64,000 nucleotides of DNA, from assembly GCA_963711835.1 (NCBI GenBank), contig CAVQFQ010000017.1:608001-672000 (forward strand). The letters are read 5' to 3'. Positions 23,138 to 63,850 of this stretch are shown piece after piece; position 1 is the first letter of the stretch; each line of letters begins with the position of its first letter. A model generated the notes under the pieces. It made no database searches, was not told where the DNA came from, and saw only the letters and a program-made list of their open reading frames with translations. The stretch is from an uncultured delta proteobacterium (GTDB taxonomy: Bacteria; Desulfobacterota; RBG-13-43-22). Both the position numbers and the translations under genes were made by a program.

Positions 23138-23932
23138 ATGGCTGTGACTATCGAAAAAGTAAGTTTTGAATACGATGGAAATCCCATACTTAAAGACATC
23201 CGATTCGAGGTCCCGGAAGGGAAATTCACCGTACTTTTAGGGAAAAACGGCAGTGGCAAATCCACCTTGCTGCGTCTGATCGCCGGATTGCTGCCTTTAA
23301 AGACCGGGAGGATCAAAATCCTGGGACAGGATCTGCATCGGCTGAGCCTTTCCCAGCGGGCCAAATTGATCGGCTACCTGCCGCAATTCCATACCCCGAT
23401 CTTCCCCTTTACCGTTGAAGAGGTGGTGCTCACCGGCCGGGCCTCCTATGTCTTTTCTACGCCGAGCAGGAGAGACCAAGAAAAAGCCGGCCAGGCCATC
23501 GCCGAGGTTGGTCTTGAAGGTCTCAGGAAGCGGCCTTATACGGAGTTGTCCGGCGGAGAGAGGCAATTGGTGATGATCGCCCGGGTCCTGGCCCAGGAGC
23601 CGAGAGTGATCCTGCTGGATGAGCCCCTGTCCCATCTGGATCTGGCCAACCAGGCCCGGTTCCTGGGCTTGATCAAAAACCTGACCGGGATCGGGATGAC
23701 CATCCTGGCCGTTCTGCACGACCCCAATGCGGCCTTCCTGTCGGGCGATCATTTCGTTTTTTTGAAGAACGGCCGGGTTCAGGAAGTGGAAGAAGGGCAG
23801 GTCCCCTGGAATGCGGAATTCTTGAGCGCAGTCTACGGCACCCCCCTGAAAGCCATCCCCTTATGGCGACCGCTCGCTTATTGTGGCTTTTTGACGGCCG
23901 GAATTGGCATCGTTCAAAAGTTGTGGCACTAG
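23138..23932 (+). CDS. Metal-chelate ABC transporter ATPase
   Basis: GKNGSGKST, LSGGERQ, LLDEP; the C-terminus runs into repeat copy A. Confidence 0.92.
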   Translation: MAVTIEKVSFEYDGNPILKDIRFEVPEGKFTVLLGKNGSGKSTLLRLIAGLLPLKTGRIKILGQDLHRLSLSQRAKLIGYLPQFHTPIFPFTVEEVVLTGRASYVFSTPSRRDQEKAGQAIAEVGLEGLRKRPYTELSGGERQLVMIARVLAQEPRVILLDEPLSHLDLANQARFLGLIKNLTGIGMTILAVLHDPNAAFLSGDHFVFLKNGRVQEVEEGQVPWNAEFLSAVYGTPLKAIPLWRPLAYCGFLTAGIGIVQKLWH

Positions 23933-24223
23933 CGCATTATTGCCTGATTGGGGGACAGGGGGTCTCGATTTCAAGGCTTGTCCAAAGGGGGATCCTTCCC
24001 GCAAATCCGGCCCAGATTTCTAAGGTTGGTTTAGAGCCGGGCATTCACCCAACCGAACAAACAGCTTTGGCGTAGGCCTGCTTAAGGCATTATCGTCAAC
24101 CTTCCAGTCCCGCTAAAAGCGGGATTTCAAAGTGAGGAGTTTATGGTGGACAACCTTGAAATCGAGACCCCCTGTCCCCTTCCATTGGGTATCAGAAATA
24201 TAAGGCCACAACTTTTGAACGAT
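23909..24223. mobile_element. Nested inverted-repeat non-coding element, copy A
   Basis: Perfect 19-bp outer IR ATCGTTCAAAAGTTGTGGC (23909-23927 / 24205-24223); 33-bp inner IR GGGGACAGGGGGTCTCGATTTCAAGG(C)TTGTCCA (23951-23984 / 24147-24179). Confidence 0.85.
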
Positions 24224-24233
24224 ACTCAGGAAT

Positions 24234-25232
24234 TCAAGGACGGGCCTGTCCGGAATTCGAGTCCATCATCAGAGAAGATTCATCCACCGCTTCAAAATCG
24301 GATCCCAGGATAACATCCAGTTCATGGAGGACGTCGTTGTCCCAGCGCTCATCCGGGGCACCCGAAATGTACCAGGCCGAGCCGTTATCGGCCAGGATCA
24401 GGCCGTATTTTTTCAAGGCCTGGGCGATGACCCGGGCCTGGGGTGAAAACCGTGAAAGGTCATAACCGGCCTTGAGTCGAAAGCGCTGGCCCATGGGAGG
24501 GTATTGGCTGCCGGTCAGGCTGGAGGCATAGTGGCGGGCCGGCCAGATAAAGGCCTTGCGGGTCTGGGGAACAGTGAAACGCAGGGCGTGCTTGATTTCA
24601 CCGGAGGCAACTTCCTCGTAGCGCACCAGACCCGGCAGCATGGGCAAGCCGGCGGCGTCGGCCGAGGTCCAGCCGGCCGGGCGAAGGGTATGAGAATTCA
24701 GCGGGAAGATCGCCCCGGAGCCGGCGGACCACTGGCCGTTCTGTTGATAAGCGGCATAGAGTTCATAGAGGATGCAGTTATCCCGGTCGACGATCAGGAT
24801 GTGGCGGTCGCCGTTGCCGTTCGGGTCGCCTTCGATCAACGGCCGGTCGGGGATAGGGTAGGGCCCGGGATCGCTTTCAGAGGGGTAATAGAAAATGACG
24901 GATGATTTGGGTTGATTGCCGGAAACGATGTTGAAGGGGATGCCGATGGGAAAACCTTCCCAGGTCCCGGCCCCGAAATCGGCATGAACATGGCGCCCGG
25001 GGCCGATGGTAGCGATATAGACATTGGAGTTAGGATCCAACGGCAGGTTGTCCACCGGTGTGTTCCAGATGTTATCGGCAGGCAAGAGGGGACAGCCGGC
25101 CAGGGTGGGCCCGGCCGGGGCGGCCAGGATGAGCGGCAGATAGATGAAGGAGCCGGCTTCGGCCGTTGAGCCGGTCCCGCCTATGAGGAGAATCAAGACC
25201 AGGATGGGGATAAAAGGCCTTAGAAATTTCAT
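24234..25232 (-). CDS. Secreted hypothetical protein
   Basis: Signal peptide then IYLPLIL; blocks DNIWN, GDRH, WTSADAAGLP, HALRFT, YGLILADNGS. Confidence 0.75.
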   Translation of the reverse strand: MKFLRPFIPILVLILLIGGTGSTAEAGSFIYLPLILAAPAGPTLAGCPLLPADNIWNTPVDNLPLDPNSNVYIATIGPGRHVHADFGAGTWEGFPIGIPFNIVSGNQPKSSVIFYYPSESDPGPYPIPDRPLIEGDPNGNGDRHILIVDRDNCILYELYAAYQQNGQWSAGSGAIFPLNSHTLRPAGWTSADAAGLPMLPGLVRYEEVASGEIKHALRFTVPQTRKAFIWPARHYASSLTGSQYPPMGQRFRLKAGYDLSRFSPQARVIAQALKKYGLILADNGSAWYISGAPDERWDNDVLHELDVILGSDFEAVDESSLMMDSNSGQARP

Positions 25233-25610
25233 GCAGGTCTGTCTTATTCAAAATAATTGCTATTCTACTTCAAGTTGTGGCATTCTTTTCCGATTAGTTG
25301 GCCAGGACTAAAGGTTCGACGGTTTTAATGAAGCGGACGAAGGCCGGTCGGCACTATAATGCTGCCTTTCCAAGGCAGCCACAATCTAATCAATGGATCG
25401 CATTAGTATCCTCTTTTAAACTTCATCTCACCCGAATTGGAACCTAAAAAAAAATATGCTACAATGGATTTACCATTTTATAAAGATCAAAACGAAGTGT
25501 GTTCAACCCTCTGATAATCATCCCTAACATCTGACCCGGATTATGTGTTATCCATCCTTTTCAAGAGTTACGGGAGATCCACCAGGCCGGAGCCCTAGGG
25601 ATTTAAAAAC

Positions 25611-28022
25611 ATGTCCTTTTTTGAAGTCATAGTTCCTCCGTTGGACCACCCTTTAACCTACGAAGTCCCCGAGGAAATTTCTCCGGATCCCCAAATCGGG
25701 CAGCGGGTCCTCGTCCCCCTTAAAAATAAGATAGTTACCGGCTACTTATGGGAGGAAGTTAAAAAAACACTTCAGGGTCCGGAAATCAAGCCGTTAATCC
25801 GTATCCTCGACTCCCAGCCCTTTTTCTCACCGGCTCTGCGCCCCTTTTTCACCTGGATCGCCCAATATTACCTCCATCCGATCGGGCAGGTTCTAAAGAC
25901 CGCCCTTCCCCCGGGATTGACGGTCAGGAGTGTCTTGAAACTCCAAATCACTGACTTAGGCCAGAAGGTGCTTCAGAACGAACTCCTGCCTCATGAGGAC
26001 CGGGCTTTGTTGAAAAAAATTACCCCAAAGGGTCTGCTATTTTCTCGGCTGGCCGCCGAAGAAAGGGAATCCGTTGTTAATTTTGAAGCCTTAGGCTGGG
26101 TCTGTCAGACCAGCCAACTCAATCAGGAACGGGCTAAGGTCAAAAAAGAAAAGTGGCTTCATCCGGGTCCTTGTTTTGAGGGGCGGCATTTTTCAGAAAA
26201 AGAGTTGCCCTTGTTTGAGCATTTGACCTCCTTCTCCTGCGGGTCGCTTCGGGACATCAAGGCCCTTTTCAACCTATCTTCCCAGCGGCTGAACACCTTG
26301 AGAAAAAGGGGCTTGATTGAAATCAGGGACCAGGTTTGCTACAGAGATCCTTTTGGTGAAATCCTGTCGGTCGAGGAGATCCCCTTGACCCTCTATCCGG
26401 AACAGAAAAAGGCTTTGGAAAAAATTAAGGAAGGGCTCCAGTCAGGGGAATATCAAACCTTTCTTCTGCACGGCATCACCGGATCAGGAAAGACCGAAAT
26501 CTATCTCCAAGCGGCGGTCGAGGCCTTGAAAGAGGGCAAACAGGCCTTGGTCCTGGTCCCGGAAATAGGCCTGGTACCCCAGATTGAGGGGCGATTTCGC
26601 CTCCGCTTTGACGACCGGATCGCCCTCCTCCATAGCGGCCTGAACCCCGGTGAACGACTGGACCAATGGCGGCGCATTCAACAAGGTGCAGCCCCGGTGG
26701 TGATCGGCACCCGTTCGGCTATTTTTGCTCCTTTTTCAAATTTGGGTCTGATTATTGTCGATGAAGAACATGACGCTTCCTACAAACAAACCGATTCCCT
26801 GCGTTACCATGCCCGCGACTTGGCCCTGGTGCGCGCCCGATTGCATTCGGCCCTGGTTATTCTGGGCTCGGCCACTCCCTCCATTTCCACTCTTTATCTC
26901 AGGCGGCAAAAAAAAATCACCTACTTGGGATTAACCAAACGGGTTCGGGATCAGGCCCTTCCTGAGGTCAAGGTCCTTGATATAAAAAAGTTCCGCCGTC
27001 GGGGCCAAATCCCCCTTCTGAGCGCTCCCCTGGAAGAAGCCCTCCGCCAAAACCTGGAAAAAAGTCGGCAAGCTCTCCTTTTTCTAAACCGCCGGGGCTT
27101 TGATACCCTGATTCTCTGTACCCTCTGCGGGGAGATACTCAAATGCCGGAATTGTTCGGTGGCCTTAACCCATCACGCCCGGCAAAACCAGCTCCTCTGC
27201 CACCTGTGTGGTTATCACATCCCCATCCCCCAGCGATGCCCTCAATGCCGACAGGAAGGAATCAAGCCTCTGGGCTTAGGGACCGAAAAAGTCGAGAAAG
27301 AACTGATCAGGCTTTTCCCGGAAGCGGCCCTGGACCGGATGGACCGGGACACGGTGGTTCGTAAAAGATCGCATTTTGAAATCCTGAAAAAAGTAAGGGA
27401 CAGGAAAACAGATATCCTGATCGGAACCCAGATGATCACCAAAGGCCATGATTTCCCTTATGTCACTCTGATCGGGGTTATCTGTGCCGATCTGTCTTTG
27501 AACTGGCCCGATTTTCGAGCCGGGGAAAGGACCTTCCAGCTTCTGGCTCAGGTAGCCGGCCGGGCCGGAAGGGGCGCCGATCCGGGAACGGTTTATATCC
27601 AGACCTATAATCCCCATCATTATGTCTTTAAGTATCTTCTGCTCCATGATTACCTGGGTTTTTTCGGACAGGAAATCCGGTTTCGCCGGGAACTCGGGTA
27701 TCCCCCTTTTTCCCGTCTGATAAATGTCCTCTTCCAGGGCAACCGGGAATCGGCGGTTAAAGAGGCGGCCGGGGTAACGGCCGGAATCCTCCGGCTGGAA
27801 AAAGAAAAAAGCCGCTGGGGAGATTCTCTGGAGATCTTAGGACCTGTGCCGGCCCCCATCGCCAGGATCAAAGGGAAATACCGCTATCAACTCCTGTTGA
27901 AAGGGGAGAACAGCCGGATGGTCCACAAGGCCGCCGGAATTATTCAACAGGCCGAGAAAGGTGTGATTCAGGGAAAAGGGGTTCAAATTGTCCTGGATGT
28001 CGATCCGGTAGATATGCTATAA
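25611..28022 (+). CDS. priA: Primosomal protein N'
   Basis: GITGSGKTE, DEEH, four CxxC zinc motifs, QVAGRAGR. Confidence 0.97.
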   Translation: MSFFEVIVPPLDHPLTYEVPEEISPDPQIGQRVLVPLKNKIVTGYLWEEVKKTLQGPEIKPLIRILDSQPFFSPALRPFFTWIAQYYLHPIGQVLKTALPPGLTVRSVLKLQITDLGQKVLQNELLPHEDRALLKKITPKGLLFSRLAAEERESVVNFEALGWVCQTSQLNQERAKVKKEKWLHPGPCFEGRHFSEKELPLFEHLTSFSCGSLRDIKALFNLSSQRLNTLRKRGLIEIRDQVCYRDPFGEILSVEEIPLTLYPEQKKALEKIKEGLQSGEYQTFLLHGITGSGKTEIYLQAAVEALKEGKQALVLVPEIGLVPQIEGRFRLRFDDRIALLHSGLNPGERLDQWRRIQQGAAPVVIGTRSAIFAPFSNLGLIIVDEEHDASYKQTDSLRYHARDLALVRARLHSALVILGSATPSISTLYLRRQKKITYLGLTKRVRDQALPEVKVLDIKKFRRRGQIPLLSAPLEEALRQNLEKSRQALLFLNRRGFDTLILCTLCGEILKCRNCSVALTHHARQNQLLCHLCGYHIPIPQRCPQCRQEGIKPLGLGTEKVEKELIRLFPEAALDRMDRDTVVRKRSHFEILKKVRDRKTDILIGTQMITKGHDFPYVTLIGVICADLSLNWPDFRAGERTFQLLAQVAGRAGRGADPGTVYIQTYNPHHYVFKYLLLHDYLGFFGQEIRFRRELGYPPFSRLINVLFQGNRESAVKEAAGVTAGILRLEKEKSRWGDSLEILGPVPAPIARIKGKYRYQLLLKGENSRMVHKAAGIIQQAEKGVIQGKGVQIVLDVDPVDML

Positions 28023-28093
28023 TTTTGCTCTGAGACATATAAAGCAAAAAGCAACAGGTCAGGCAATATGACAACTAAGATGATGAGCCGGTT

Positions 28094-28612
28094 ATGGCCC
28101 TCTTAGAAATCCGCAAATATCCGGATCCGGTTTTGGGGAAAAAAGCTAAACCGGTGGAAATTATCAATGACACCCTTAAAGCCCTGATTCAGGACATGGT
28201 CGAGACCATGTATCAGGCCCCGGGGATCGGTCTGGCGGCCAACCAGGTCGGAAGGCCTCTCAGACTGATCGTCTTTGATGTTACCCCCAAAGATCAAAGC
28301 CGCAATCCATCGGCCATTATCAATCCGGAAATTTTCGAGGCCGACGGCGATCAAACCGTTGAAGAGGGCTGCCTCAGCGTCCCGGATTATTATTCCGAGG
28401 TAAAACGAAGCGCCAGCGTAAAAGTGCGGGGACTGAACGACCAGGGTCATCCGGTCGAGGTCTGCGCCGAAGGGATGCTGGCCACGGTTTTACAACATGA
28501 AATTGATCACCTGGACGGTATCCTCTTTATTGACCGCATCAGTTCCCTGAAACGGACCCTTTATAAAAAAAGGATTCAAAAGAAGTTGAAGAAAGAAAGT
28601 GAACCGGTCTAA
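28094..28612 (+). CDS. def: Peptide deformylase
   Basis: GIGLAANQ, EGCLS, QHEIDHLDG. Confidence 0.97.
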   Translation: MALLEIRKYPDPVLGKKAKPVEIINDTLKALIQDMVETMYQAPGIGLAANQVGRPLRLIVFDVTPKDQSRNPSAIINPEIFEADGDQTVEEGCLSVPDYYSEVKRSASVKVRGLNDQGHPVEVCAEGMLATVLQHEIDHLDGILFIDRISSLKRTLYKKRIQKKLKKESEPV

Positions 28613-29558
28613 CTATTCCCGTCTAATCTTCATGGGCACCCCCGATTTTGCCCTGCCCTGCTTAAAGGCCCTCTTGCAGGCCAAAGAGGAGGTGGTTGCC
28701 GTTTATACGCAGCCGGATCGTCCCCGAGGACGGGGGCAGAGGATAAGCCTTTCTCCGGTCAAAGAGTTGGCCTTGGACAGCCGCCTCCCGATCTTTCAAC
28801 CCAAAACCCTCAGGGACTCGTCCCTTCTCAGGCAATTGGCGGAACATAAACCGGATCTCTTAATCGTGGTCGCCTATGGTTTGATCCTCCCCCAAGAGGT
28901 TCTGGACATCCCGACCTGGGGGGCCGTCAATGTCCATGCCTCCTTATTGCCCAAATATCGGGGGGCGGCCCCGATTCAGTGGGCCATTATTAAAGGTGAA
29001 AAAGAGACCGGCGTTACCACCATGCGCCTGGATGCCGGTATGGACACCGGAGATCTGCTCTTCCAGCAACCCCTGCCGATCCTGGAAACCGATACCACCC
29101 AGAGCCTGCAGGATCGGCTTTCCGAAGCCGGCGCGTCCTTATTGCTCCAGACTCTCACCGCCCTTCGCCAGGGCACCTTAGTCCCCTTTCCCCAGGACCC
29201 CCGCCTAGCCAGCTATTCCCCCCCCTTAAAAAAAGAACAGGGGGAAATCAATTGGGAACTGTCGGCCCGGGAAATAAACGGTTGGGTAAGAGGCTTAACC
29301 CCCTGGCCGGGTGCCTTTACTTTTTGCCGGGGAAAACGATTGCTCTTGCATCTGGCCTCACCCGAAACGGAAAACGATCGCGGGATCCTGGGAACCATTC
29401 ACTCTCTGCCTGAAGGATTGATTCGAGTCCAGACCGGCCAGGGGTTATTGGTCTTGAAAGAAGTTCAGTTGGAGGGCCATCGCCGGGTCTCGTCCCAAGA
29501 ATTTTTGAAAGGGTTCCCCCTCAAGGTCGGAGATCGCCTGGGCCGCCGATGGCCTTGA
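28599..29558 (+). CDS. fmt: Methionyl-tRNA formyltransferase
   Basis: FMGTPDFA, NVHASLLPKYRGAAPIQ. Confidence 0.97.
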   Translation: MNRSNYSRLIFMGTPDFALPCLKALLQAKEEVVAVYTQPDRPRGRGQRISLSPVKELALDSRLPIFQPKTLRDSSLLRQLAEHKPDLLIVVAYGLILPQEVLDIPTWGAVNVHASLLPKYRGAAPIQWAIIKGEKETGVTTMRLDAGMDTGDLLFQQPLPILETDTTQSLQDRLSEAGASLLLQTLTALRQGTLVPFPQDPRLASYSPPLKKEQGEINWELSAREINGWVRGLTPWPGAFTFCRGKRLLLHLASPETENDRGILGTIHSLPEGLIRVQTGQGLLVLKEVQLEGHRRVSSQEFLKGFPLKVGDRLGRRWP

Positions 29559-30901: not shown

Positions 30902-31005
30902 CCCCCGGCAATCACCATTCAGGAAAAAAATAAACCTCCTGTGTTTGGGTAGTTGCCGATCGCTGAAAGCTGATAGCTCAACGCCAAAAATATAGGAGTT
31001 GTAAC

Positions 31006-31668: not shown

Positions 31669-31727
31669 CTTTTCGAACCCTTTTTTTAATTAATGCTGCT
31701 CCGAAAATAACCCTTTCCGGATCCCCA

Positions 31728-33708
<1,981 letters not shown>

Positions 33709-38169: not shown

Positions 38170-38180
38170 CCTTTTTGGAC

Positions 38181-38468
38181 TCGTTCAAAAGGTCTGGCCT
38201 TATTCCCGATTCACGACGGCAGGGGACCGGGGGTCTCGAATTTAAGGCTTGTCCAAAGGGGGACCCTTCCCACCAATCCGGCCCAGATTTCTAAGTTGGT
38301 TTAGAGCCGGGCCTTCACCCACCCGGACAAACAGCTTTGGTGGAGGCCTGCTTAAAGCATTATCGTCACCTTTCCAGTCCCGCTAAAAGCGGGATTTCAA
38401 AGTGAGGAGTTTATGGTGGACAACCTTAAAATCGAGACCCCCGGTCCCCTGCTCTATCTTTTGAACGA
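38181..38468. mobile_element. Nested inverted-repeat element, copy B
   Basis: Outer IR TCGTTCAAAAG/CTTTTGAACGA; inner IR 38219-38452; core nearly identical to copy A. Confidence 0.85.
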
Positions 38469-38571
38469 TAGGGACCCCCTTCTTCCTTGTCCCCCTCTTG
38501 AATTTTACTTGACAGAAGGACCCCGACAGGAATAATTTTAATGAAATTTTATTGTGTTAGAGGATCGGCGG

Positions 38572-42392: not shown

Positions 42393-42508
42393 AAGCGGTC
42401 CTTTCCCCTTTTTCCCTTTCTCCATACCATTTTTTGCTTCAACAAATCAACCCCTTCCTGGCCTTGCCCTGATCCCCGGTTTATGGTAAAGTAAGCCCCG
42501 GATTTTTT

Positions 42509-42815
42509 GGTAACGTTCAGAAGTTGATGCATTATATTTCTGATACTCGATGGAAAGGGATCGGGGGTATCGATTTCAAGGATTGTCCGAAAGGTAATCC
42601 GCAGCCCCAACCCGGCCCGAATTTCTAAGTTGGTTGGGAGCCGGGCCTTCACCCCAGACGATAAATCGCCTTGGTGTTGGCCTGCTTCTAAACCCACTTA
42701 TAACTTCCTGCCCGGGGTCAGGCTGCCGGCGTTTCGGCGGACAACCTTGAAATCGAAACCCCCGGTCCCCAAGTCAGGCAATAATACGCCAGTGCCATAA
42801 CTTTTGAACGTTACC
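42509..42815. mobile_element. Nested inverted-repeat element, copy C
   Basis: Outer IR GGTAACGTTCAGAAGTT/AACTTTTGAACGTTACC; inner IR 42557-42770. Confidence 0.85.
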
Positions 42816-42922
42816 GATTTTTTGAATACCGATTACAGCTCCGGGCCTGAACCCAACAGAGCTGGAAATCACGCCCCAGGCCTCCGGAGGAGAACCAATC
42901 TCAAAAGGACACAAAACGGGTC

Positions 42923-50002: not shown

Positions 50003-50082
50003 GGGTTAACTCCTTCTATCCGTAACAGAACAGATTCTTGAAAAATACCTTCCGAGAATTTACCTCTAACTTTCCAATATCA

Positions 50083-50265
50083 GGTGTTGGGGGTCTTATT
50101 TTTTTCACGTTGTCCAAAGGGTGACTAAGAGCCCCGAATAGATAAATTCATTTGAGAGCAGGGCCTTCACCCCAGCCTATTCCCAGGTTGGGTGTAGGCC
50201 TGTCCCGCCTGGCGGGACTTATGGCTTGGTGGTGGACAACTCAAAAAAATAAGACCCCCAACACC
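50083..50265. mobile_element. Nested inverted-repeat element, divergent copy E
   Basis: IR GGTGTTGGGGGTCTTATTTTTTT..GTTGTCCA / TGGACAAC.CAAAAAAATAAGACCCCCAACACC around the shared GGCCTTCACC...GGTGTAGGCC hairpin. Confidence 0.75.
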
Positions 50266-50291
50266 ATTTATTCAAGACTTGGGAAAAAAAT

Positions 50292-51494
50292 TCAAATCTC
50301 TTTGGTCAGTTTCTTCCGCAGCCAGTCCAGGGCCATGACCGCCACCCGATCGGGCAGGGTATCGGAGAAGCCGCCAATTTTATGAGAATAGCTTTCTTCC
50401 TTTGTTCCGGTCAGGCCCAGGTAAAGCACCTGACGGCCTTCCACTTCTTCCACCAAAACAGCCAATCCCCAGTCGCTTCCGAGAAAAGAGAGGATCTCCC
50501 GGGCCTGATTTAAGGCCTTTTCCTCCCCTGACAACCGGGAGGAATCAAGAGGCCGGTCTCCTTCCTGAGGAATCACCCAGCCTCCTTTAAAAAAACGGGT
50601 CCGCCTGTTCTGAAGGCGCTGGCTGATCCGGCCGGCCGTGAAGGTTTCCACTAATCCCAGATGGATCCCTTTTTGTTCCAACAGTCCGGCTACCACCCCT
50701 TCCAGGGTTTCTTCTCCCTCTCCGAAGATCAATGAACCCAAACGCTGCCGGATCTGTGCTTCCATCCCGGCAATCAGAGACGATGTTTCCTGGGGGTCCT
50801 TCCCCTGGGCCGTCAAGGAGATCCGGATTTCTCCCGGGGATGACAACAGCCCGATAGCCGGGTTTTGGCTGCTCCGAATCAGATCCCCGATCTGCTCATC
50901 GACCCGGCTTTCGCCCAGGCCGCAGAGTTTTAATACCTTGGTTTCAATCAGACCCCTCTTCCGGCCCAGGGCCTTGATCAAAAAGGGTTGAACCGTGTCC
51001 ACAAACATGCGTTTCAATTCCCGGGGGACTCCGGGCAGGGCGGCCATGATAGGCCCCGGTTCGGTTTTCAAAATAAAGCCGGGGGCCGTTCCCTGAAGGT
51101 TGGGAATCGTTCGCGCACCGGCCGGAATGAGGGCCTGTTTCCGATTATTGGGGGCCATCATAAAACCGGCCTGGTCGAAAAAGCTTTTGATGAGGGCAAA
51201 CAATCTGGGGTGAAAGATCAGTTTTTTCCCGGTTACCTCGGAAATCACCTCCCGCGTCAAATCGTCTTCGGTGGGACCGATGCCTCCGCTGGTGATAATA
51301 ATGCCCGAGCGTTTCAGGGCTTGGCGGAAAACGGAGCGCATGCGCTTTCGATCGTCTCCGACCATGGTTTGGAAGATGACCTCGATTCCGATTTCATTCA
51401 ATTTGGAAGCCAAATAGGAGGTGTTGGTATCCACGATCCGGCCCAGCAATAGTTCCGACCCGATGGCGATGATTTCTGCCTGGTTCTCTTTCAT
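50292..51494 (-). CDS. cinA: CinA competence/damage-inducible protein with a divergent PncC domain
   Basis: IGSELLLG, GGIGPTEDD, LPGVPRE; C-domain has VETFTAG instead of AESCTGG. Confidence 0.85.
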   Translation of the reverse strand: MKENQAEIIAIGSELLLGRIVDTNTSYLASKLNEIGIEVIFQTMVGDDRKRMRSVFRQALKRSGIIITSGGIGPTEDDLTREVISEVTGKKLIFHPRLFALIKSFFDQAGFMMAPNNRKQALIPAGARTIPNLQGTAPGFILKTEPGPIMAALPGVPRELKRMFVDTVQPFLIKALGRKRGLIETKVLKLCGLGESRVDEQIGDLIRSSQNPAIGLLSSPGEIRISLTAQGKDPQETSSLIAGMEAQIRQRLGSLIFGEGEETLEGVVAGLLEQKGIHLGLVETFTAGRISQRLQNRRTRFFKGGWVIPQEGDRPLDSSRLSGEEKALNQAREILSFLGSDWGLAVLVEEVEGRQVLYLGLTGTKEESYSHKIGGFSDTLPDRVAVMALDWLRKKLTKEI

Positions 51495-51586
51495 TCTTTT
51501 CTTTCCCTTCCGGTCATTTTCTAACAAACCAAACCGCCATCCTCCAAGATGGGAGAGAGTTTCTCATAAAAACATTTCCCCAACTG

Positions 51587-53454: not shown

Positions 53455-53546
53455 ATGAGCTCATAGCTCAAAGCTGTTAGCTGATAGTAAAATAAATTCT
53501 CATTTCGCTGTTTGCTATAGGCGTTGCGCTATCAGCTATCAGCTTC
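53455..53546. repeat. Heptamer (GCTGATA-type) tandem repeats arranged as an imperfect palindrome
   Basis: GCTCATA GCTCAAA GCTGTTA GCTGATA ... GCTATCA GCTATCA GCT; similar run at about 30962-30980. Confidence 0.6.
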
Positions 53547-53550
53547 TGGG

Positions 53551-54714: not shown

Positions 54715-54770
54715 GAAATAACCTCCTATTTACTCATTAACAATTATTTTTGATTTTCTTATAAAAAAAC

Positions 54771-54842
54771 CGTCATTCCCGCGCAAGCGGGAATCCAGAT
54801 CATTCTATCAAATGCCTTGATTCCCATCTTCATGGGAATGAC
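54771..54842. repeat. Empty inverted doublet of ATTCCC-N8-GGGAAT (dRS3/CGTC-type REP) palindromes
   Basis: CGTCATTCCCGCGCAAGCGGGAATCCAGA (54771-54799) and inverted ATTCCCATCTTCATGGGAATGAC (54820-54842). Confidence 0.85.
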
Positions 54843-54886
54843 TTATATGCTGGCCGGGTAACAAGTAGTGAGATTTTCAAGTAACC

Positions 54887-55242
54887 CGTCATTCCCGCGA
54901 AGGCGGGAATCCAGAGATTTATGTACAGACTTTATCATACAAGTCGATCCACTCCGGATTACTTTTTTCTATTAATTTCAATTTCCATCCCCGGTTCCAT
55001 TTCTTTAATTGTTTTTCCCTGATAATGGCTGTTTCCGGCGACGGATGCTCTTCAAACCAGACTAATTGGTGAACCTTATATTTCTTGGTAAATCCTTCAA
55101 CTAAGTCGTTTTTATGTTCATATATTCTTTTAACCAAGTCGGAAGTCACTCCAATATATAATGTTCCATTTCGCTTACTGCAAAGAATATATACATAAAA
55201 TGGTTTCATTTTTTCTGGATTCCCGCTTGCGCGGGAATGACG
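54887..55242. mobile_element. GIY-YIG nuclease cassette bounded by inverted REP palindromes
   Basis: CGTCATTCCCGCGAAGGCGGGAATCCAGA (54887-54915) and TCTGGATTCCCGCTTGCGCGGGAATGACG (55214-55242) tightly flank an AT-rich gene. Confidence 0.75.
54919..55209 (-). CDS. Stand-alone GIY-YIG nuclease
   Basis: YVYIL...LYIGVT.DL.KR.YEH, REKQLKKW.R.WK, NPEW.DL. Confidence 0.92.
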   Translation of the reverse strand: MKPFYVYILCSKRNGTLYIGVTSDLVKRIYEHKNDLVEGFTKKYKVHQLVWFEEHPSPETAIIREKQLKKWNRGWKLKLIEKSNPEWIDLYDKVCT

Positions 55243-55277
55243 TTTTTATATGAATCCCTATTCTCAATTTGGGCCTG

Positions 55278-56432: not shown

Positions 56433-56437
56433 GGGTC

Positions 56438-57619
56438 CTACTCCGGTTTACGCCCCACAATCAGGGCGATACCCTGCCCGCCGCCGATGCACATCGTGGC
56501 TAATCCATATTTTGAATCCCGGCGCCCCATTTCATAAAGCAACTTAACCAGCAGGCAGCCTCCGGAAGCCGATATGGGATGGCCCAGGGCAATGGCCCCG
56601 CCGTTGACATTCACTTTTGCCGGATCCATGCCCAATTCTTTTAGACAGACCCAGGCCTGGGAGGCGAAGGCCTCATTCAGTTCAATCAGGTCCATATCCT
56701 TAATGGACAGGCCGGCATTTTGTAAGGCCTTCCGGGTGGCCGGGATCGGCCCGATCCCCATCAGGGAAGGTTCCACCCCGACTGAGGCATAGCTTACGAT
56801 ATGGGCCAGCGGTTTCAAACCCAGGGCTTGGGCTTTTTCCAGGGACATGATCATCAAGGCCGAAGCCCCGTCATTCATGCCGCTGGAATTACCGGCGGTC
56901 ACCGTCCCTTCCTTTTTAAAAGAAGGCGGGAGTTTGGCCAGGGCTTCCCGGGTGGTCCCGAACCGGGGGTGCTCATCGGTATCAAAAATCAGGGGGTCCT
57001 TCTTTTTTTGGGGTATCTTCACCGGTACGATTTCGTCCTTGAATTTTCCGGCTTTGATCGCCGCTTCGGCTTTTTGTTGACTGAGAAGGGCCAGTTCATC
57101 CTGCTCCTCGCGGGAGACCTTATATTTTACGGCCACATTCTCCGCCGTTTCACCCATGGTGTTGCCCGAGAGGGGATCAAACAGGATCAATTGATCCATG
57201 AGCTGCCCGTGGCCCAGGCGGTATCCCCAGCGGGCATTTTTAAGGAGATAGGCAGCCCGGCTCATGGATTCCATGCCCCCGGCCAGGATACTATCGGCTT
57301 CTCCGGATCGAATGATCTGGCAGGCCAGCGAAACGGCCCTGAGGCTTCCGCCGCAGGCCTTGGTGATGGTGAATTGCGGCGTTTCTATAGGTACCCCTCC
57401 TTTTACAGCCACTACCCGAGCCGAATTGATTGGCAACTCTCCGGTCCGATACCCTGAAGCAAAAATGACCTCCTCCACCTGGTCTCCGGTCAGACCGGCC
57501 CTTTGGATGGCCTCCCGGATGACCAAGGCCCCCAGGTCCATATCACTGACCTCTTTCAGGCTTCCGCCAAAACGGCCGATAGCCGTCCGAACTCCGCTGA
57601 CAATAACCACTTCTCGCAT
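56438..57619 (-). CDS. Acetyl-CoA acetyltransferase (thiolase)
   Basis: KACGGS, NEAF, GHPISASG, CIGGGQG. Confidence 0.95.
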   Translation of the reverse strand: MREVVIVSGVRTAIGRFGGSLKEVSDMDLGALVIREAIQRAGLTGDQVEEVIFASGYRTGELPINSARVVAVKGGVPIETPQFTITKACGGSLRAVSLACQIIRSGEADSILAGGMESMSRAAYLLKNARWGYRLGHGQLMDQLILFDPLSGNTMGETAENVAVKYKVSREEQDELALLSQQKAEAAIKAGKFKDEIVPVKIPQKKKDPLIFDTDEHPRFGTTREALAKLPPSFKKEGTVTAGNSSGMNDGASALMIMSLEKAQALGLKPLAHIVSYASVGVEPSLMGIGPIPATRKALQNAGLSIKDMDLIELNEAFASQAWVCLKELGMDPAKVNVNGGAIALGHPISASGGCLLVKLLYEMGRRDSKYGLATMCIGGGQGIALIVGRKPE

Positions 57620-57797
57620 TGGATCCTCCTTTTCCCTTTCTCAGCCCCTTCCCCGGCCCGGAAAAGACCTGAGAGAAGGACCTGAACGGTAGCTAAAACA
57701 GGGTAACTATCCTAATAAATTAACCCTTTTGTCAATATCTTTTTACCCCTTTGTCTCTCTCCGGCACCCGGGAAACCGATGATCGGTCTCTTTCGGA

Positions 57798-58532
57798 TCA
57801 AGGCCTGTCTTCCGGAGAATCAGTCGGGCTTAAAACCCCTTTATCCAAAAAAATGAGTTTATGGGCCGTCCGGGCCGCCCGGGGATCGTGGGTGACCATG
57901 ATGATGGTTTTCTTGAAGTCCTGATTCAGGCCTTCCATCAATTGCAGGATATCTCGGGCCGAATCCTTATCCAGGTCCCCGGTGGGCTCATCGGCTACAA
58001 TAATGGTCGGATCGGTGATAATGGCCCGGGCTATGGCGACCCGTTGCTGTTGTCCGCCGGAAAGCTCTTTGGGATAATGCTCCCGGCGATCCTCCAGGCC
58101 TACGATCCGAAGGGCGGTTTCCACATGCCGGCGACGTTCCCGGCCGGAAAGGGAGGTCAAGAGCAACGGCAGTTCCACATTTTCAAAAGCCGTTAAGACC
58201 GGGATCAGGTTATAGAACTGAAAAATGAAGCCGATGTGGCGGGAACGCCACTCGGCCAGCTCCATCTCTTCCAAGGTCGTGATGTCCGTTCCGGCCACCC
58301 GGATCGTCCCTTGATCGGCCTGATCGATCCCGGCAATCAAGTTAAGCAGGGTGGTTTTGCCGGATCCGGAGGGGCCCATCAGGGCGATAAATTCCCCTTC
58401 GGGGATGGTCAGGGAAATATCCTGCAGGACCGGGATCTCCTGGTTTCCCCGGTAATAAGATTTAGAGAGGTGTTTGATTTCTACCAGGGTCTTGATTTCC
58501 TGAGGGGGATTCGGGATCACTCTTAGCGACAT
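57798..58532 (-). CDS. LolD/MacB-like ABC ATPase with no adjacent permease
   Basis: [26 protein letters not shown]. Confidence 0.9.
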
Positions 58533-58539
58533 AATCTTT

Positions 58540-58673
58540 AAATCCGAAATTCGAAGCACGAAATCCGAAACAAACACGAAGGTTCAAAATTTAAATGATC
58601 AAAAAAACTTTTTGAAATTTGAGATTTGGTCATTTGAATTTGTTTCGGGTTTCGAAATTTGGATTTCGAATTT
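58540..58673. repeat. Long imperfect palindrome built of AAATCCG/AAATTCG heptamers
   Basis: AAATCCG AAATTCG AAGCACG AAATCCG AAACAAA ... TTTGTTT CGGGTTT CGAAATT TGGATTT CGAATTT. Confidence 0.75.
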
Positions 58674-58698
58674 CCAACCAAAATTTTGATATACCTCC

Positions 58699-59349
58699 CT
58701 AACCTTTTCTTCCTTTTTGAGCCTGGGCCCCAAAATCGCAATAGGGAAGGAGAAAACAGATCCCACATTGAGGGGATCGGGCCTGGCAAAGGCTGCGGCC
58801 ATGGTCGATGACCTGGTGGGAAAAGTCAATCCATTTCTCCCGGGGGATCATAGGCATCAGGGCCGATTCGATCTTGACCGGATCCTTTTCCCGGGTCAGC
58901 CCCAGGCGCTGGGAAATCCGGGCCACATGGGTGTCAACCACAATCCCTGGGATGCCGAAGGCATTCCCCAGGACTACGTTGGCTGTTTTTCGGCCAATAC
59001 CCGGCAGGGCCACCAGCTCCTCCATGGTCCGGGGCACTTCACCCTGGTGTCTCTGTAACAATTCCCGGCAGCAGGCCTGAATATGTCTGGCCTTATTATG
59101 ATAAAAGCCGGTGGAGCGGATGTCCGCTTCCAGGTTCGGGGGGGCGGCTTGAGCATAGTCTCGGGCCGTCCGATACTTCTTAAACAGGACCTTGGTGACT
59201 TCGTTGACCCGCTGGTCGGTGCATTGGGCTGAAAGAATGGTGGCGATCAGTATTTCCAGCGGGCTCCGGAAATGGAGGGCGGTCCGGGACAGGGGGTAAT
59301 GCCGCTTCAGTTCTTTTAAGATATTGGCGATCTTTATTTTATCGCTCAT
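58699..59349 (-). CDS. nth: Endonuclease III
   Basis: LSAQCTD, HhH LPGIGRKTA, VDTHV, C-terminal C-x6-C-x2-C-x5-C. Confidence 0.95.
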   Translation of the reverse strand: MSDKIKIANILKELKRHYPLSRTALHFRSPLEILIATILSAQCTDQRVNEVTKVLFKKYRTARDYAQAAPPNLEADIRSTGFYHNKARHIQACCRELLQRHQGEVPRTMEELVALPGIGRKTANVVLGNAFGIPGIVVDTHVARISQRLGLTREKDPVKIESALMPMIPREKWIDFSHQVIDHGRSLCQARSPQCGICFLLPYCDFGAQAQKGRKG

Positions 59350-61073
59350 GCCCTTTTCCTCTTCCTTTGCCCAAGAAAGGCCGCCACGTCATCCTGGCCT
59401 TGGGTATTAAAGATATCCTCCCGGGTCAACCAGCCTTTCCGGGCGATCCCCACCCCCAGGGAGAGGTCCTGCAGACCTTCCAGGTGATGGGCATCGGTAT
59501 TGATAACGATTTTAAGGCCCAATTGTTTGGCTTGTTTCATTAGGCGCCAGTCCAGATCCAGACGATGGGGGTTGGCATTCAATTCGATTAATACCCCGTT
59601 TCGAGCAGCAGCCTTAAGGACCAGCTCCATAGTAACCGGGTAAGGGTCCCGGGCCAACAGCAATCGTCCGGTAGGATGCCCTAAGATCGTGGTAAAGGGA
59701 TTCTCAATGGCCCGGATGATACGCTTAGTCATTTCAGTCTCGGTCATAGTAAAGCGGGAATGGACCGAAGCAATCACGAAATCAAAAGCCGCCAATTCCG
59801 CCTGGCTATAGTCCAGCGAACCATCGGGAAGGATATCGGATTCGATCCCCCAGAAGAGACGAACCTGGTCCTGTTTCCGGTTCCAAAGGGCGATTTCAGC
59901 CCTCTGTTCTTTCAACTGTTCCGGTTTCAGCCCCCCGGCATAGGCAGCCGTTTGGCTGTGATCGGATATACCGAGGTAATGCAGGCCCTGCTTCTGGGCC
60001 GCCTGAATCCATTGAGACAGGCTGGGGGTGCCGTCGCTTAAAAGGGTATGGAGATGAAACGTCCCTTGAATATCCCGGTCCTCGACCAGGACCGGCAGGG
60101 TCCCTGCTTCGGCGGCCTCGATTTCACCCCAATCCTCCCGGAGTTCCGGGGCAATGTAGGAAAGTCCCAGGCCTTGATAGATTTCGAACTCGCCCCGGCA
60201 GGGAATCAGACGGTTTCCCTGGAACAGTCCGTACTCATTGAGCTTGAAACCCAAACCCTTGGCCCGGGTGCGCAGCCGGGTATGGTGTTCTTTGCTCCCG
60301 GTAAAGTGATGCAGGGCAAAGGGAAAGAGGTTCGGACCCACCACCCTCAGATCGGCCTGAATGCCTGACTTGAGCAGGACCGAGGATTTGGTAGGCCCCT
60401 GGGCAATGACCTGTTCCACCAAGGGCAAGGTGCTGAAATAGGCTGTTAAAGCCTCGGGACGGCTGCTTTCGGCCACCAGATCGATATCCTTGACCGTTTC
60501 TTTTTTACGCCGCAGGCTGCCGGCCACAGAGGCTTGGAGGGTTTCCGGGTGGTTGCGGATCTCCTCCAACAGGGCCTGGGCCAGAGGATAAATCTCCCCG
60601 TAGAGAAACCGGCTCTTGAAGCGTTTGACTTGCTCGATCGCCCGGAGGATATTATCCTGGGACTTCTTCCCAAAGCCGGGCAGGGTCAGGAGACGATTTT
60701 CATGGCAGGCATATTCCAGCTCCCCCAGGTTCCTGATCCCCAGCCGGGCCACCAGTTCCTTTACTTTTTTGGGGCCCAGCCCGGGGACCCGAAGCATCTC
60801 CCGGAGTTCCAGGGGGAAGCGGCTTTTAAGGTCCTCCCATAAGGGGGTGGATCCTTCCCGGACCAACTGGGTGATCTGTTCGGATAAGGTCGCTCCGATC
60901 CCTTTCAGCTTGGGAAGGGCGCCGTTGCGGATTAGTTCCGCCGCTTCCAGGTCCTGGGATTCAATGATCCGGGCCCCTTGGGCATAAGCCCGGATCTTAA
61001 AAGGGTTCTCCCCGGCCAGTTCCAACAGCTCGGCCATCTCGGACAGGATCTGGGCCACTTCTTTATTGTTCAT
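59346..61073 (-). CDS. polX: DNA polymerase X with PHP domain
   Basis: AGSLRR...KDIDL, FTGSKEH, PHP motifs HLHT, SDHS, GHPTGR, NTDAH. Confidence 0.95.
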   Translation of the reverse strand: MNNKEVAQILSEMAELLELAGENPFKIRAYAQGARIIESQDLEAAELIRNGALPKLKGIGATLSEQITQLVREGSTPLWEDLKSRFPLELREMLRVPGLGPKKVKELVARLGIRNLGELEYACHENRLLTLPGFGKKSQDNILRAIEQVKRFKSRFLYGEIYPLAQALLEEIRNHPETLQASVAGSLRRKKETVKDIDLVAESSRPEALTAYFSTLPLVEQVIAQGPTKSSVLLKSGIQADLRVVGPNLFPFALHHFTGSKEHHTRLRTRAKGLGFKLNEYGLFQGNRLIPCRGEFEIYQGLGLSYIAPELREDWGEIEAAEAGTLPVLVEDRDIQGTFHLHTLLSDGTPSLSQWIQAAQKQGLHYLGISDHSQTAAYAGGLKPEQLKEQRAEIALWNRKQDQVRLFWGIESDILPDGSLDYSQAELAAFDFVIASVHSRFTMTETEMTKRIIRAIENPFTTILGHPTGRLLLARDPYPVTMELVLKAAARNGVLIELNANPHRLDLDWRLMKQAKQLGLKIVINTDAHHLEGLQDLSLGVGIARKGWLTREDIFNTQGQDDVAAFLGQRKRKRA

Positions 61074-61083
61074 AAAATAGATT

Positions 61084-61755
61084 CTAAAGGATGATAATTT
61101 TTTTGATGGCCTTTATCACTTCCTCCGGTTCATCAATGACCTGGATCAGGTCCATGTCCTCCGGAGAAATCATGCATTCCGGGCAGACCACCTTGCGCAT
61201 CCAGTCCAGCAGTCCTTTCCAGTAAGCCCGGTTCACCAGTATGACGGGGAACGGTTTAATGCGCCGGGTCTGGATCAGGGTAATGGCCTCGGTTAATTCA
61301 TCGAGGGTCCCGAATCCGCCGGGCAGGATCACGTAGGCCACGGCATATTTCACGAACATCACTTTGCGGATGAAGAAATAGCGAAAATTCAGGCGCACGT
61401 TGGCATAGGGATTGGGCTTCTGCTCGTAGGGGAGCTGGATGTTCAGGCCCACGGACTTGCCACCGGCTTCGGCCGCCCCTTTGTTGGCGGCTTCCATAAC
61501 GCCCGGCCCTCCCCCCGAAATGACGTTAAATCCATTTTCGACCAAAAGGCGGGCAATGGTAAGCGCCTGTTCGTAGGAAGGATCACCGGGGCGTACCCGG
61601 GCCGATCCGAACATGGAGACGGCCGGATATATCTTGGACAGGTCTTCAAAACCATCCACAAATTCGGCCAGGATGCGGAACAAACGCCAGGTATCCTTGA
61701 TGGTCAGCTCATCAATGACATATTGATGATCATGGGAATCGCTTTTAAAATCCAT
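61084..61755 (-). CDS. LOG family nucleotide monophosphate nucleosidase
   Basis: FGSAR, GGGPGVMEA, PGGFGTLDE. Confidence 0.92.
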   Translation of the reverse strand: MDFKSDSHDHQYVIDELTIKDTWRLFRILAEFVDGFEDLSKIYPAVSMFGSARVRPGDPSYEQALTIARLLVENGFNVISGGGPGVMEAANKGAAEAGGKSVGLNIQLPYEQKPNPYANVRLNFRYFFIRKVMFVKYAVAYVILPGGFGTLDELTEAITLIQTRRIKPFPVILVNRAYWKGLLDWMRKVVCPECMISPEDMDLIQVIDEPEEVIKAIKKIIIL

Positions 61756-61926
61756 GGATCAATCCTTCCCGGTCAAGCGCTGCCTACTTTTTCATTGTAA
61801 TCTTAACCCCCTGCTTATATTATTTGACCACCTCTGTCAAGATGTAGGTTGGTTTGGAACCCCTGAACGCTCTCTCGGGCTGGGGCCGAGCCGGATGGGA
61901 AGAAGGAGAAGAAAGGAAATTATCTT

Positions 61927-63513
61927 ATGCAAGTGACCTGTTTAGGGGCTGCCCGGACGGTAACCGGGTCCTGTTTTTTAATTGAAAACGAAAGCCTCCG
62001 CTTTTTGGTTGATTGCGGGATGTTTCAGGGCGGCAAAGAAATCGAAAAAAGAAATCACTCTTTAGGACGCTACCGGCCCCAGGAACTGAAATATATCCTT
62101 TTGACCCATGCCCATATCGATCACTCCGGTCTCATCCCCAAGGCGGTCAAGGAGGGCTTTAGAGGCAAGATCCTCTGCACCCAGGCCACCTTTGAGCTCT
62201 GCCGCATCATGCTGCTCGACAGCGCCCATATCCAGGAAAACGAGGCCGAATGGCAGAGCCGGAAGAACGTCCGTTCCGGGCAGAAGCCGGTCGAACCGTT
62301 ATATACCAGGGAGGATGCCGAGCGGAGTCTGACCTTGTTTCAGCCCGTGGATCAGGGGGATTGCGTCAATCTGAGCCCGGATATCCGGGTCTGTTTTCGC
62401 AACGCCGGCCATATCCTCGGTTCGGCCTTCCTGGAGATTATTTTTCAGGAAAAGGGCTTGGCCGGCAAATGTGTTTTTTCGGGTGATATCGGACGCCAGG
62501 AGGCCATGATCGTTCCTGATCCGGATATCATCGAGGAAGCCGATTTTTTGTTCGTGGAATCCACCTATGGGGATCGGCAGCACAAGTCATTGGAAGAAAG
62601 CAAAGCCGAATTGCTGGCCGCCATTCAGGAGGGGATCAAGTACGGCGAAAAGATTATCATCCCGGCCTTTGCCGTTGAACGGACTCAGGAAGTCTTATAC
62701 GTCATAAATGAATTTCAGCATCAGGGTCTGATTCCTTCTCTTCCGGTCTTCGTGGACAGCCCTTTGGCCATATCGGCCACGGAGATTTTCAGAAAGTTCC
62801 CGGAATACCTGGACGGCGAAACCTCCCGGCTTACCGCCCAGGGAATCAACCCCCTGGATCTCCCCAATTTGATTTTTTCCCGGACCGCCGAAGAGTCGAT
62901 GGCCATCAACCGCCAGGAAGGGTCGGCGATCATCATAGCCGCCAGCGGCATGTGTGATGCCGGAAGGATCAAACACCATCTCAAGCACAACCTCTGGAGG
63001 CCGGGAGCTCAGATCGTCATCATCGGCTTCCAGGCCCAAGGGACCTTAGGCCGCTCCATCGTCGATGGGGCCAGGAAAGTGCGGCTCTTCCGGGAGGAAG
63101 TGGCTGTGCGGGCCAAGGTGCATACCATCGGCGGTTTTTCGGCCCATGCCGATCAAAAGGAATTGCTAACCTGGATCGGCCACTTTAAGAATCCGAAACT
63201 CAAGGTCTTTGTCATCCACGGGGAAGAAACGGCCAGCCTGGCCCTGGCCCAGACCCTTCAAAAAGCCTTCCCCTTCCAGGTGGCTGTGCCCCGCTGGCTG
63301 GAAACCATCGCTTTGACTCCTCCGGCCGTAAGACCGGCAGAGCTGACCTCGGAAGCCGAAGATATCCCGGCCCTCTTGGCTACCTTGGAAGAACGCCTGC
63401 ATTCCTTCAAGGGCTATCTGGCAGGGATCACCGGTCTCAAAAAAGGAAAATTCCCGGAGATCAGGAACCTCCTGAAGAAGACCGACAAGGCATTTGAAGG
63501 AATGATGAAGTGA
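61927..63513 (+). CDS. Metallo-beta-lactamase / beta-CASP RNA-metabolising hydrolase
   Basis: THAHIDHSG, AGHILGS, ESTYG, FSAHAD, HGE. Confidence 0.92.
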   Translation: MQVTCLGAARTVTGSCFLIENESLRFLVDCGMFQGGKEIEKRNHSLGRYRPQELKYILLTHAHIDHSGLIPKAVKEGFRGKILCTQATFELCRIMLLDSAHIQENEAEWQSRKNVRSGQKPVEPLYTREDAERSLTLFQPVDQGDCVNLSPDIRVCFRNAGHILGSAFLEIIFQEKGLAGKCVFSGDIGRQEAMIVPDPDIIEEADFLFVESTYGDRQHKSLEESKAELLAAIQEGIKYGEKIIIPAFAVERTQEVLYVINEFQHQGLIPSLPVFVDSPLAISATEIFRKFPEYLDGETSRLTAQGINPLDLPNLIFSRTAEESMAINRQEGSAIIIAASGMCDAGRIKHHLKHNLWRPGAQIVIIGFQAQGTLGRSIVDGARKVRLFREEVAVRAKVHTIGGFSAHADQKELLTWIGHFKNPKLKVFVIHGEETASLALAQTLQKAFPFQVAVPRWLETIALTPPAVRPAELTSEAEDIPALLATLEERLHSFKGYLAGITGLKKGKFPEIRNLLKKTDKAFEGMMK

Positions 63514-63632
63514 GATAACCATCGAGCCCCTCCTTGAGGCTTTAAGAACGCATTGAAGCCGTGATAAAACCTCCGCTGCGGCCTTTAAGAGTCAGGCGTC
63601 ATTAATTCACCTTAAATATTAAATCACCGCAA

Positions 63633-63850
63633 AGGGTTTCAGGGGTCTTGATTTCAAGGTTGTCCGAAAGGTAATCCATAGCCCCAACCCGGCCCGAATT
63701 TCTAAGTGGGTTGGGAGCCGGGCATTCACCCAAGCCGATAAATCGCTTTGGTGTTGGCCTGTTTCTAAACCCACTTATAGACTTCCTGCCCGGGTTCAGG
63801 CTGCCGGCGTTTTGGCGGACAATCCTTGAAATCAAGACCCCTGAAACCCT
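63633..63850. mobile_element. Inverted-repeat element, copy D (no recognisable outer shell)
   Basis: AGGGTTTCAGGGGTCTTGATTTCAAGGTTGTCCG / CGGACAATCCTTGAAATCAAGACCCCTGAAACCCT; core closely matches copy C. Confidence 0.85.

Follow-up and report, generated by a model that had tools for sequence, protein, structure and literature searches.

MITE families are defined by their ends, and the interiors of MITEs are commonly regarded as decayed filler. Type II bacterial MITEs (e.g. RUP, Correia/NEMIS, ERIC and QMITE) are shorter than 500 bp, carry no ORF, have IS-type terminal repeats and are flanked by target duplications; as far as the accessible text of PMC10969869 goes, they occur at AT-rich intergenic sites and adopt a stable stem-loop fold. 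The repeated element described here is similar in all of these respects. It differs, however, in that at least six end pairs have one interior in common, which can be inverted within a pair and passes from one pair to another, a situation not described in the accessible portions of PMC10969869 or PMC3184786. A literature search for bacterial MITEs with a shared core found no paper describing them, most subscription papers being outside our reach.

REPINs and TIR repeats, which are associated with RAYT or TIRYT (accessible parts of PMC6006769 and PMC3733652), are the other comparable systems. Like them, our element is a high-copy hairpin with arms that vary together, and Y1 genes are present in the genome. 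In contrast to them, it has DDE-type ends and target duplications, and it flanks none of the 11 Y1 ORFs examined. In this it departs from REPINs, REPtrons and TIRtrons, whose repeats flank a Y1 gene. The preliminary description had proposed either a REPIN/MITE-like element or a structured RNA. The MITE part of this proposal stands, based on IS-family terminal repeats, target duplications and an empty site, while the REPIN and RNA parts find no support. We consider the elements to be, probably, non-autonomous DNA transposons (type II MITEs), which consist of IS ends and a separable, shared hairpin cassette of ~220 bp and are likely moved in trans.

Copies of the element in the window

The window is a stretch of 64,000 nucleotides. 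All six copies that had been reported from it (A to F) are present at their places, but A, D and E extend further than had been described. Copy A (23906..24226, forward strand) is a complete MITE with ISH6-type ends (shell A) and an A/B-type core. Its arms are located at 23951-23984 and 24147-24179, box 2 at 24007-24012, and box 3, which is the inner hairpin, has its halves at 24036-24049 and 24069-24081, all on the forward strand. The left shell contains the stop codon of an upstream ABC-transporter ORF (23138-23932). Copy C (42509..42815, forward strand; arms at 42557-42589 and 42738-42769) is also a complete MITE with shell A, and carries a C/D-type core in the minority orientation. Target-site duplications, which had not been noticed before, exist for both: 8 bp with 7 of 8 bases matching at copy A (23898-23905 and 24227-24234), and a perfect 8 bp at copy C (42501-42508 and 42816-42823).

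Copy B (38177..38472, forward strand; arms at 38219-38255 and 38417-38452) has an A/B-type core in a divergent A-like shell, and a target duplication is no longer present in its flanks (2 of 8 bases match). Copy D (63610..63895, forward strand; arms approximately at 63628-63666 and 63816-63855) has shell D with a C/D-type core in the minority orientation; its outer left end is missing and its right end is intact. Copy E (approximately 50033..50310, forward strand; arms approximately at 50076-50116 and 50233-50272) has a shortened core in shell E, a type with unequal ends which is flanked by TA. Copy F (approximately 3735..3890), previously considered a partial copy, is a half copy on the reverse strand with one H-like end, one arm and the inner hairpin. 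A seventh fragment had been overlooked, namely a single G-type (IS630-like) end on the reverse strand (32338..32378) with the start of an arm attached and no core. Among the four sequencing runs compared, no empty site was seen for copies B, C and E.

The arms, as had been noted, are complementary within each complete copy (33-41 bp), and the inner hairpin is common to all six copies. The proposed division into two subfamilies holds for the cores, which split into A/B and C/D (93% identity within, 74-75% between), but copy C combines an A-type shell with a D-type core, so that the subfamilies of ends and cores do not coincide. The density of about one copy per 10 kb is not peculiar to the window, as the genome has 145 loci in 3.9 Mb.

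Shells, insertion sites and parent insertion sequences

The full core of ~220 bp is found in 121 of the 145 loci, and in this genome every core is enclosed by one of six end pairs, which we call shells. Median lengths are 296-332 bp for shells A, D and G. Only one of the 121 full copies lies within a called gene. Among two-ended copies, 7-8 of the 8 bases of the target duplication match in 22 of 28 cases for shell A and in 28 of 41 cases for shell D, compared to 3.9% (shell A) and 2.6% (shell D) when ends from different copies were paired. For shell G, 9 of 16 copies are bordered by TA at either end. The comparison of empty sites that had been suggested was successful for one D-type copy, which is cleanly absent from two related strains (runs X2 and X4, 345-base skip, 8 shared bases, flank of 236-255 bases). 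The elements are thus short, non-coding, multicopy and intergenic, with target duplications and an empty site, as is characteristic of type II bacterial MITEs.

The ends of shell A match those of ISH6-family loci from the same phylum in 12 cases, one of which is identical over 23 bases. Two of the matching loci have whole ORFs above the NCBIfam cut-off; neither of these two has clean 8-bp duplications. The ISH6 family (p-MULT 2, e.g. ISDesp5) resembles shell A by near-identical terminal repeats, an 8-bp duplication and an AT-rich target, and the target profile of shell A agrees with the AT-rich ISH6 consensus in the accessible part of PMC3942029. Shell A differs from this family in having no transposase; apart from 42-45 bases retained at each end, the unit consists of the cassette. 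Judged by its terminal repeats and AT-rich 8-bp duplication, shell A is an ISH6-family derivative.

TA duplication is a trait of the IS630 family (NCBIfam NF033545). Shell G, with its TA flanks, corresponds to IS630 elements at both ends, down to the -35-like hexamer on the left. It differs from them in that the cassette replaces approximately the region from transcription start to stop codon. By its terminal repeats and TA duplication, it is an IS630-family derivative. For shell D, the best parent match is weak (20 of 25 bases to the broken ISH6-like locus L318, E 0.04-0.1), while its 8-bp duplication fits an IS256/ISH6-type (p-MULT) element. Terminal repeats shared with an autonomous IS around an unrelated interior were found for shells A and G, with a weak match for D.

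No firm parent for shells E, H, J and K was found among PF01609, PF00872, PF06782, PF13358 and ISH6 loci, nor were the parents of shells E, H, I, J and K found otherwise. The ends of K resemble those of locus L148 (E 0.001). The core is absent from 93 parent-type IS loci (ISH6 and IS630, with 80 from the latter), and no IS was found that carries it inside its own ends. Transposases of the ISH6, IS256, IS6, IS1595 and IS630 families were not found in this assembly, which is 89% complete. The IS110 and IS5-like genes of the genome have unrelated ends. On contig C10, an A copy is split in two by a separate IS that has inserted into the core; the 451-aa DDE-type ORF located there is part of this IS, which has its own ends. 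Short end-like matches spaced by 1-2 kb in the genome enclose ordinary genes and not transposases. A plasmid collection, searched with one G copy, gave no match. Viral contigs matched neither the core pattern nor the D-end pattern; 16 A-end and 19 G-end single matches, none of them with a second end, were taken as chance.

Because shell A has ISH6-family ends and 8-bp duplications, shell G has IS630-family ends, and a D copy is cleanly absent from two related strains, we consider the combination of shell and core to be a MITE. Mobilization would occur in trans by matching DDE transposases, putatively of the ISH6 family for shell A and of the IS630 family for shell G.

Covarying arms and the structured-RNA reading

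In the preliminary description, the covarying arms had been attributed to selection on a folded single strand. The fold is very stable and rod-like (z = -11.9 for copy A and -10.5 for copy C against dinucleotide shuffles), length and boxes of the core are conserved, G-U occurs at some inner pairs across lineages, and one of the strands gives a slightly better consensus fold (-133 vs -128; 40 of 64 rows). Together with the location of 120 of the 121 copies outside called genes, this would fit a core that serves the host as a structured non-coding RNA, or as an RNA element within transcripts, and is merely dispersed by the MITE ends. However, the arm mismatches in the 121 copies show no wobble bias (63 G-T vs 62 A-C), nor do the recent inner changes (10 G-T vs 12 A-C). 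In the two inner box helices, none of the 12 pairs has changed on both sides. With respect to its shell as well as to neighbouring genes, the core can lie either way round: its orientation relative to tandem genes is 37:38, and inner segments occur in mixed orientation in distant genera. There is no excess between convergent genes (16 of 120 copies vs 296 of 2473), and a preference for the leading or lagging strand, scored by local GC skew, was not seen (38 vs 44 of 82 scorable copies). At the gathering threshold, only tRNA was detected by Rfam in the window, and a search with 12 copies (E up to 5) resulted in a single chance match of 21 bits against a cut-off of 85, so that the suggested Rfam check yielded no family. 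At copy A, a promoter or terminator pattern was looked for and none was seen. The depth of RNA-run contigs cannot show expression and was discarded.

The structured-RNA reading is not supported, and we consider it very improbable. The covarying 33-bp arms are DNA-level repeats, as shown by equal numbers of G-T and A-C mismatches, a lack of inner compensatory changes and indifference of the core to gene direction. It is likely that the cassette promotes the spread of the elements at the DNA level and does not function as an RNA gene. This is a warning for RNA discovery, as homogenization of repeats at the DNA level can yield strong covariation of arms.

The core cassette and its transfer between shells

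Of 21 genomes of the host's class, 20 contain this core, within at least eight end pairs, at least six of which are found in this genome. On a tree of 64 inner cores, the shell label changes 16 times, the minimum possible being 6. The ends are younger and more variable than the interior, which has been carried by unrelated transposase families. Being shared across the class, always shelled, repeatedly re-shelled and absent from parent-type IS loci, and having constrained boxes, this core is unusual. It may pass between shells by recombination or template switching through the arms, and new IS end pairs may thus capture the cassette.

The arms begin at a fixed point in every shell, and this might indicate that the core itself is mobile, with 33-bp terminal repeats and a single-strand (Y1/TIRYT-type) transposase, and targets the interiors of small transposons as in REPIN/TIR-repeat systems. 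At its start, arm A agrees with a G-rich motif that the accessible part of PMC3733652 reports for TIRYT repeats, and the genome has 12 Y1-family matches. The unpaired extra bases in the core boxes are reminiscent of single-strand recognition sites. However, besides the missing association with Y1 ORFs, a free core outside a shell was not found among the 121 copies from this genome or 81 from other genomes. In coreless shells, remnants of the arms are left that differ in length, so that these shells represent internal deletions, not clean empty sites. A core that is mobile by itself is therefore highly unlikely.

The core keeps three mirror-image boxes, which are about threefold more constant than the spacers. 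Private changes affect 24 of 2974 G/C sites in boxes and 80 of 3370 in spacers, and the depletion is about threefold for private and shared variants alike, also when only G/C columns are considered. Nevertheless, the core is not required for mobility, as a second MITE family (~18 full copies) has no core and, in other families of the phylum, the hairpin repeats found between E-type ends are unrelated to it. These observations, the coreless shells and the high abundance of the core are in accordance with neutral cargo, where an abundant old hairpin repeat is most likely to become the filler whenever repair turns an IS into a MITE, and where the boxes seem constant because copies convert one another or because paired G/C stretches mutate more slowly. 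We regard this as unlikely: the box depletion holds in the G/C-only comparison, spacing and the unpaired extra base of boxes 2 and 3 persist across four genera, and arm-to-arm repair predicts mirrored box changes, which are found for only 1 of 44 variant types.

The boxes may have been kept because a copy is duplicated or retained more often if they are intact. Their most likely role at the DNA level would be a stable single-strand hairpin, or a site for a host protein, which brings two close ends together. As a tentative extension, the cassette could be a transposase-independent, cis-acting adaptor, its three spaced mirror-image boxes improving any short IS end pair as a substrate, and could survive the turnover of IS families by moving between end pairs. 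If so, it would constitute a heritable unit ranking one step below the MITE, possibly reflecting a general principle of bacterial MITE evolution. If the boxes raise transposition for more than one transposase, they would be a testable general enhancer of DDE transposition and would explain why some repeats outlive their parent IS.

Every large shell holds the core in both orientations (33/11 for D, 26/3 for A, 10/14 for E and 14/3 for G, with 5 undecided). Template switching homogenizes arms and inverts spacers, as described for short repeats in yeast in the accessible part of PMC8604942. Polymerase template switching between the 33-bp arms may likewise keep the arms matched while the middle flips. 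Homogenization is partial, since of 80 outer-arm variant types no more than 26 have a mirrored counterpart, counted in a separate alignment; that of the RNAalifold run had the outer arms misaligned. At copy C, a reversed core is found beside the right flank in contigs of two public runs.

Shell and core as a mobile unit

The positions of the six copies noticed in the window (A-F) were confirmed, and they fold strongly, with z-scores against shuffled sequences of -11.9 for copy A and -10.5 for copy C. The repeat unit described from them exists, but its extent had been set too small. Two 33-35-bp arms with about 150 bases between them form a core of about 220 bp, and this core is enclosed by an outer pair of transposon-type ends, the shell. 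An iterated profile search of the assembly holding the window (3.9 Mb, 28 contigs, 89% complete) found 145 loci. Three of these, located on contig C27, have counterparts on C17 and could be duplicates from the assembly. A full core is present at 121 loci. Sorting these by flank, with 16 corrections by hand, gave shell types D (46 copies), A (31), E (25), G (17), H (1) and I (1).

Small hairpin modules of 15-60 bp occur in many cores (L023-L101; in the window at 24109-24125 and 50204-50218), where they have been added to the sequence or stand in for segments of it, always at one of a few fixed positions; they are also present outside the elements. In one A copy (L103, contig C10:53478-55977) such a module is interrupted by a 2.1-kb IS carrying a helix-turn-helix-like ORF and a second ORF of 451 aa, which matches DDE_Tnp_1 weakly and has no match in NCBIfam. 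A CinA-like ORF (window 50292-51527, minus strand) terminates within the right shell of copy E.

Each shell is a pair of transposon ends. Among copies with both ends identified, 22 of 28 with shell A and 28 of 41 with shell D have flanking 8-mers that agree at 7-8 bases, compared to 3.9% (A) and 2.6% (D) when the ends are taken from different copies. For shell G, TA is found at both sides in 9 of 16 such copies. The preliminary description had seen no target-site duplication; this has to be corrected, as 8 of 8 bases agree for copy C and 7 of 8 for copy A. It had also proposed to look for empty sites in related genomes. When four public sequencing runs were compared to a 12-kb stretch of contig C18, a D copy was found to be precisely absent in two of them. 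The contig skips the entire copy (345 bases; 8 shared bases, flanks of 236-255 bases), and thus shell and core move as one.

A search for ISH6 elements covered 401 genomes of the phylum and found 13 ISH6-family loci, with three genomes exceeding the cut-off. End profiles of shell A gave 12 matches on ISH6-family loci, one end being identical over 23 bases, and two ISH6 loci with whole ORFs have shell-A-type ends at both sides, without clean duplications. The target profile of shell A agrees with the AT-rich target consensus in PMC3942029. An IS630 element present in two copies in another genome (G007) matches shell G at both ends, as do its relatives from metagenomes, for which 80 of 501 loci were retained. 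The ends of shell D weakly resemble ISH6/IS256-type ends; parents of shells E, H, I, J and K (the latter two from other genomes) were not found. Transposases of the ISH6, IS256, IS6, IS1595 and IS630 types were not found in the 89% complete source assembly, and none of 93 ISH6 and IS630 loci contains the core. By the definition in PMC10969869, the system of shell and core is a type II MITE. No bacterial MITE interior common to unrelated end families was found in the literature searched, within the limits of that search.

Distribution and exchange of cores

A pattern scan found at least 79 loci in eight species-genome records, which are titled as Deltaproteobacteria, Thermodesulfobacteriota or Pseudomonadota MAG. 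With a sequence-only model, the core was detected in 20 of the 21 genomes of the class, covering all four genera, with up to at least 113 matches per genome (108 candidates scored per genome); it was found in none of 146 other genomes of the phylum, which were searched with stricter filters. From 131 loci of other genomes, 32 partial or short-flanked ones and 18 duplicates were excluded. All 81 remaining loci lie within a shell (66 with both sides recognised, 13 with one, 2 by eye), and such loci added shells J and K.

Ends also occur without this core. A second MITE family of about 18 full copies (234-260 bp) lacks it; the core is dispensable for some MITEs. One copy of this family (L149 1854-2087; C18:40353-40586) is missing in runs X2 and X4. 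E-type ends from other taxonomic families of the phylum surround different, unrelated hairpin repeats (L446, L450, L451, L453, L456, L459, L464). Thus, ends and cargo pair many-to-many. About two dozen coreless shells, which retain arm remnants of varying length, are internal deletions.

Each large shell contains the core in both orientations (D 33/11, A 26/3, E 10/14, G 14/3; 5 undecided). In contigs from runs X4 and X7, the unique sequence to the right of copy C continues into a reversed core. This suggests that the core flips in place, although the contigs stop before the left flank and their short side measures 39 bases. At two loci of another genome (L054, L055), the same shell half occurs at both sides, which would be the outcome of one arm serving as template for its partner. 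Template switching is described in PMC8604942 as homogenising arms and inverting spacers; between 33-bp arms 150 bases apart, it would match the arms and invert the core.

A tree built from 64 inner cores without their arms has 16 switches of the shell label, where the minimum is 6 and shuffling gives a mean of 33. The cores fall into the proposed subfamilies A/B and C/D, but the ends follow another division, copy C being an A shell around a D-type core. D-type insertions interrupt A-, E- and G-type copies within their AT-rich ends or arms (L149 10947-11140; C17:14270-14780; C25:45040-45240), and D is thus the younger family.

Arm covariation and conserved boxes

The covariation of the arms had been read as selection on the folded single strand. 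It is a DNA-level effect. Across the arms of 121 copies there are 63 mismatches that allow G-U pairing on the core strand, compared to 62 of the mirror class, A-C; the 61 copies taken from other genomes have 21 and 36. The strongest covarying column pairs among 64 non-redundant cores all lie within the arms. In a 48-row alignment, both sides have changed in 9 of 15 arm pairs versus 0 of 12 pairs of two inner box helices; a 4-pair helix above these has two such pairs, from three cells. Recent inner changes (86 rows, 11 clusters) comprise 10 G-T, 12 A-C, 21 other and 1 compensatory. Contrary to the DNA-level reading, one strand gives a slightly better consensus fold, and G-U occurs at some inner pairs across lineages, in counts that are non-independent.

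The alternative of a structured RNA is unlikely, the element having failed the tests for a non-coding RNA. No Rfam family matches the element. According to home-made gene calls, 75 of the gaps holding 120 copies are tandem, 29 divergent and 16 convergent (background: 1825, 352 and 296). Where the neighbouring genes are in tandem, the core runs along them in 37 cases and opposed in 38.

Each core half carries three boxes at a spacing of about 30 bases, and the two sets are mirror images. Pairing of boxes 2 and 3 leaves one extra base, a feature kept in distant genera, where the inner segments occur in mixed orientation. Private changes at G/C sites number 24 in 2974 for boxes and 80 in 3370 for spacers, and shared variants 16 in 4306 and 89 in 7338 sites (83 copies of five subfamilies; as copies are related, the test overstates the difference). 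This constraint without compensation points to recognition of the boxes by sequence or shape at the DNA level.

Y1-family genes and other repeats

From the initial choice between a REPIN/MITE-like element and an RNA, only the MITE part holds. A REPIN or TIRtron has a Y1 gene flanked by the repeat, according to PMC6006769 and PMC3733652; here the element flanks none of 11 Y1 ORFs, and this reading is unlikely. The genome has 12 Y1-family matches (L001-L012). Most are long, TIRYT-like ORFs whose short flanks are G-rich and inverted.

A different hairpin repeat of 29-34 bp (window 54767-54799, 54883-54915, 55214-55247) flanks a gene for a GIY-YIG nuclease of 96 aa (window 54919-55209 on the minus strand; 69 bits to Pfam PF01541), and the layout of this region (window 54766-55247) is REPtron-like. 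A further repeat type, a 57-bp imperfect inverted repeat of short AT-rich units, is located at window 58540-58673.
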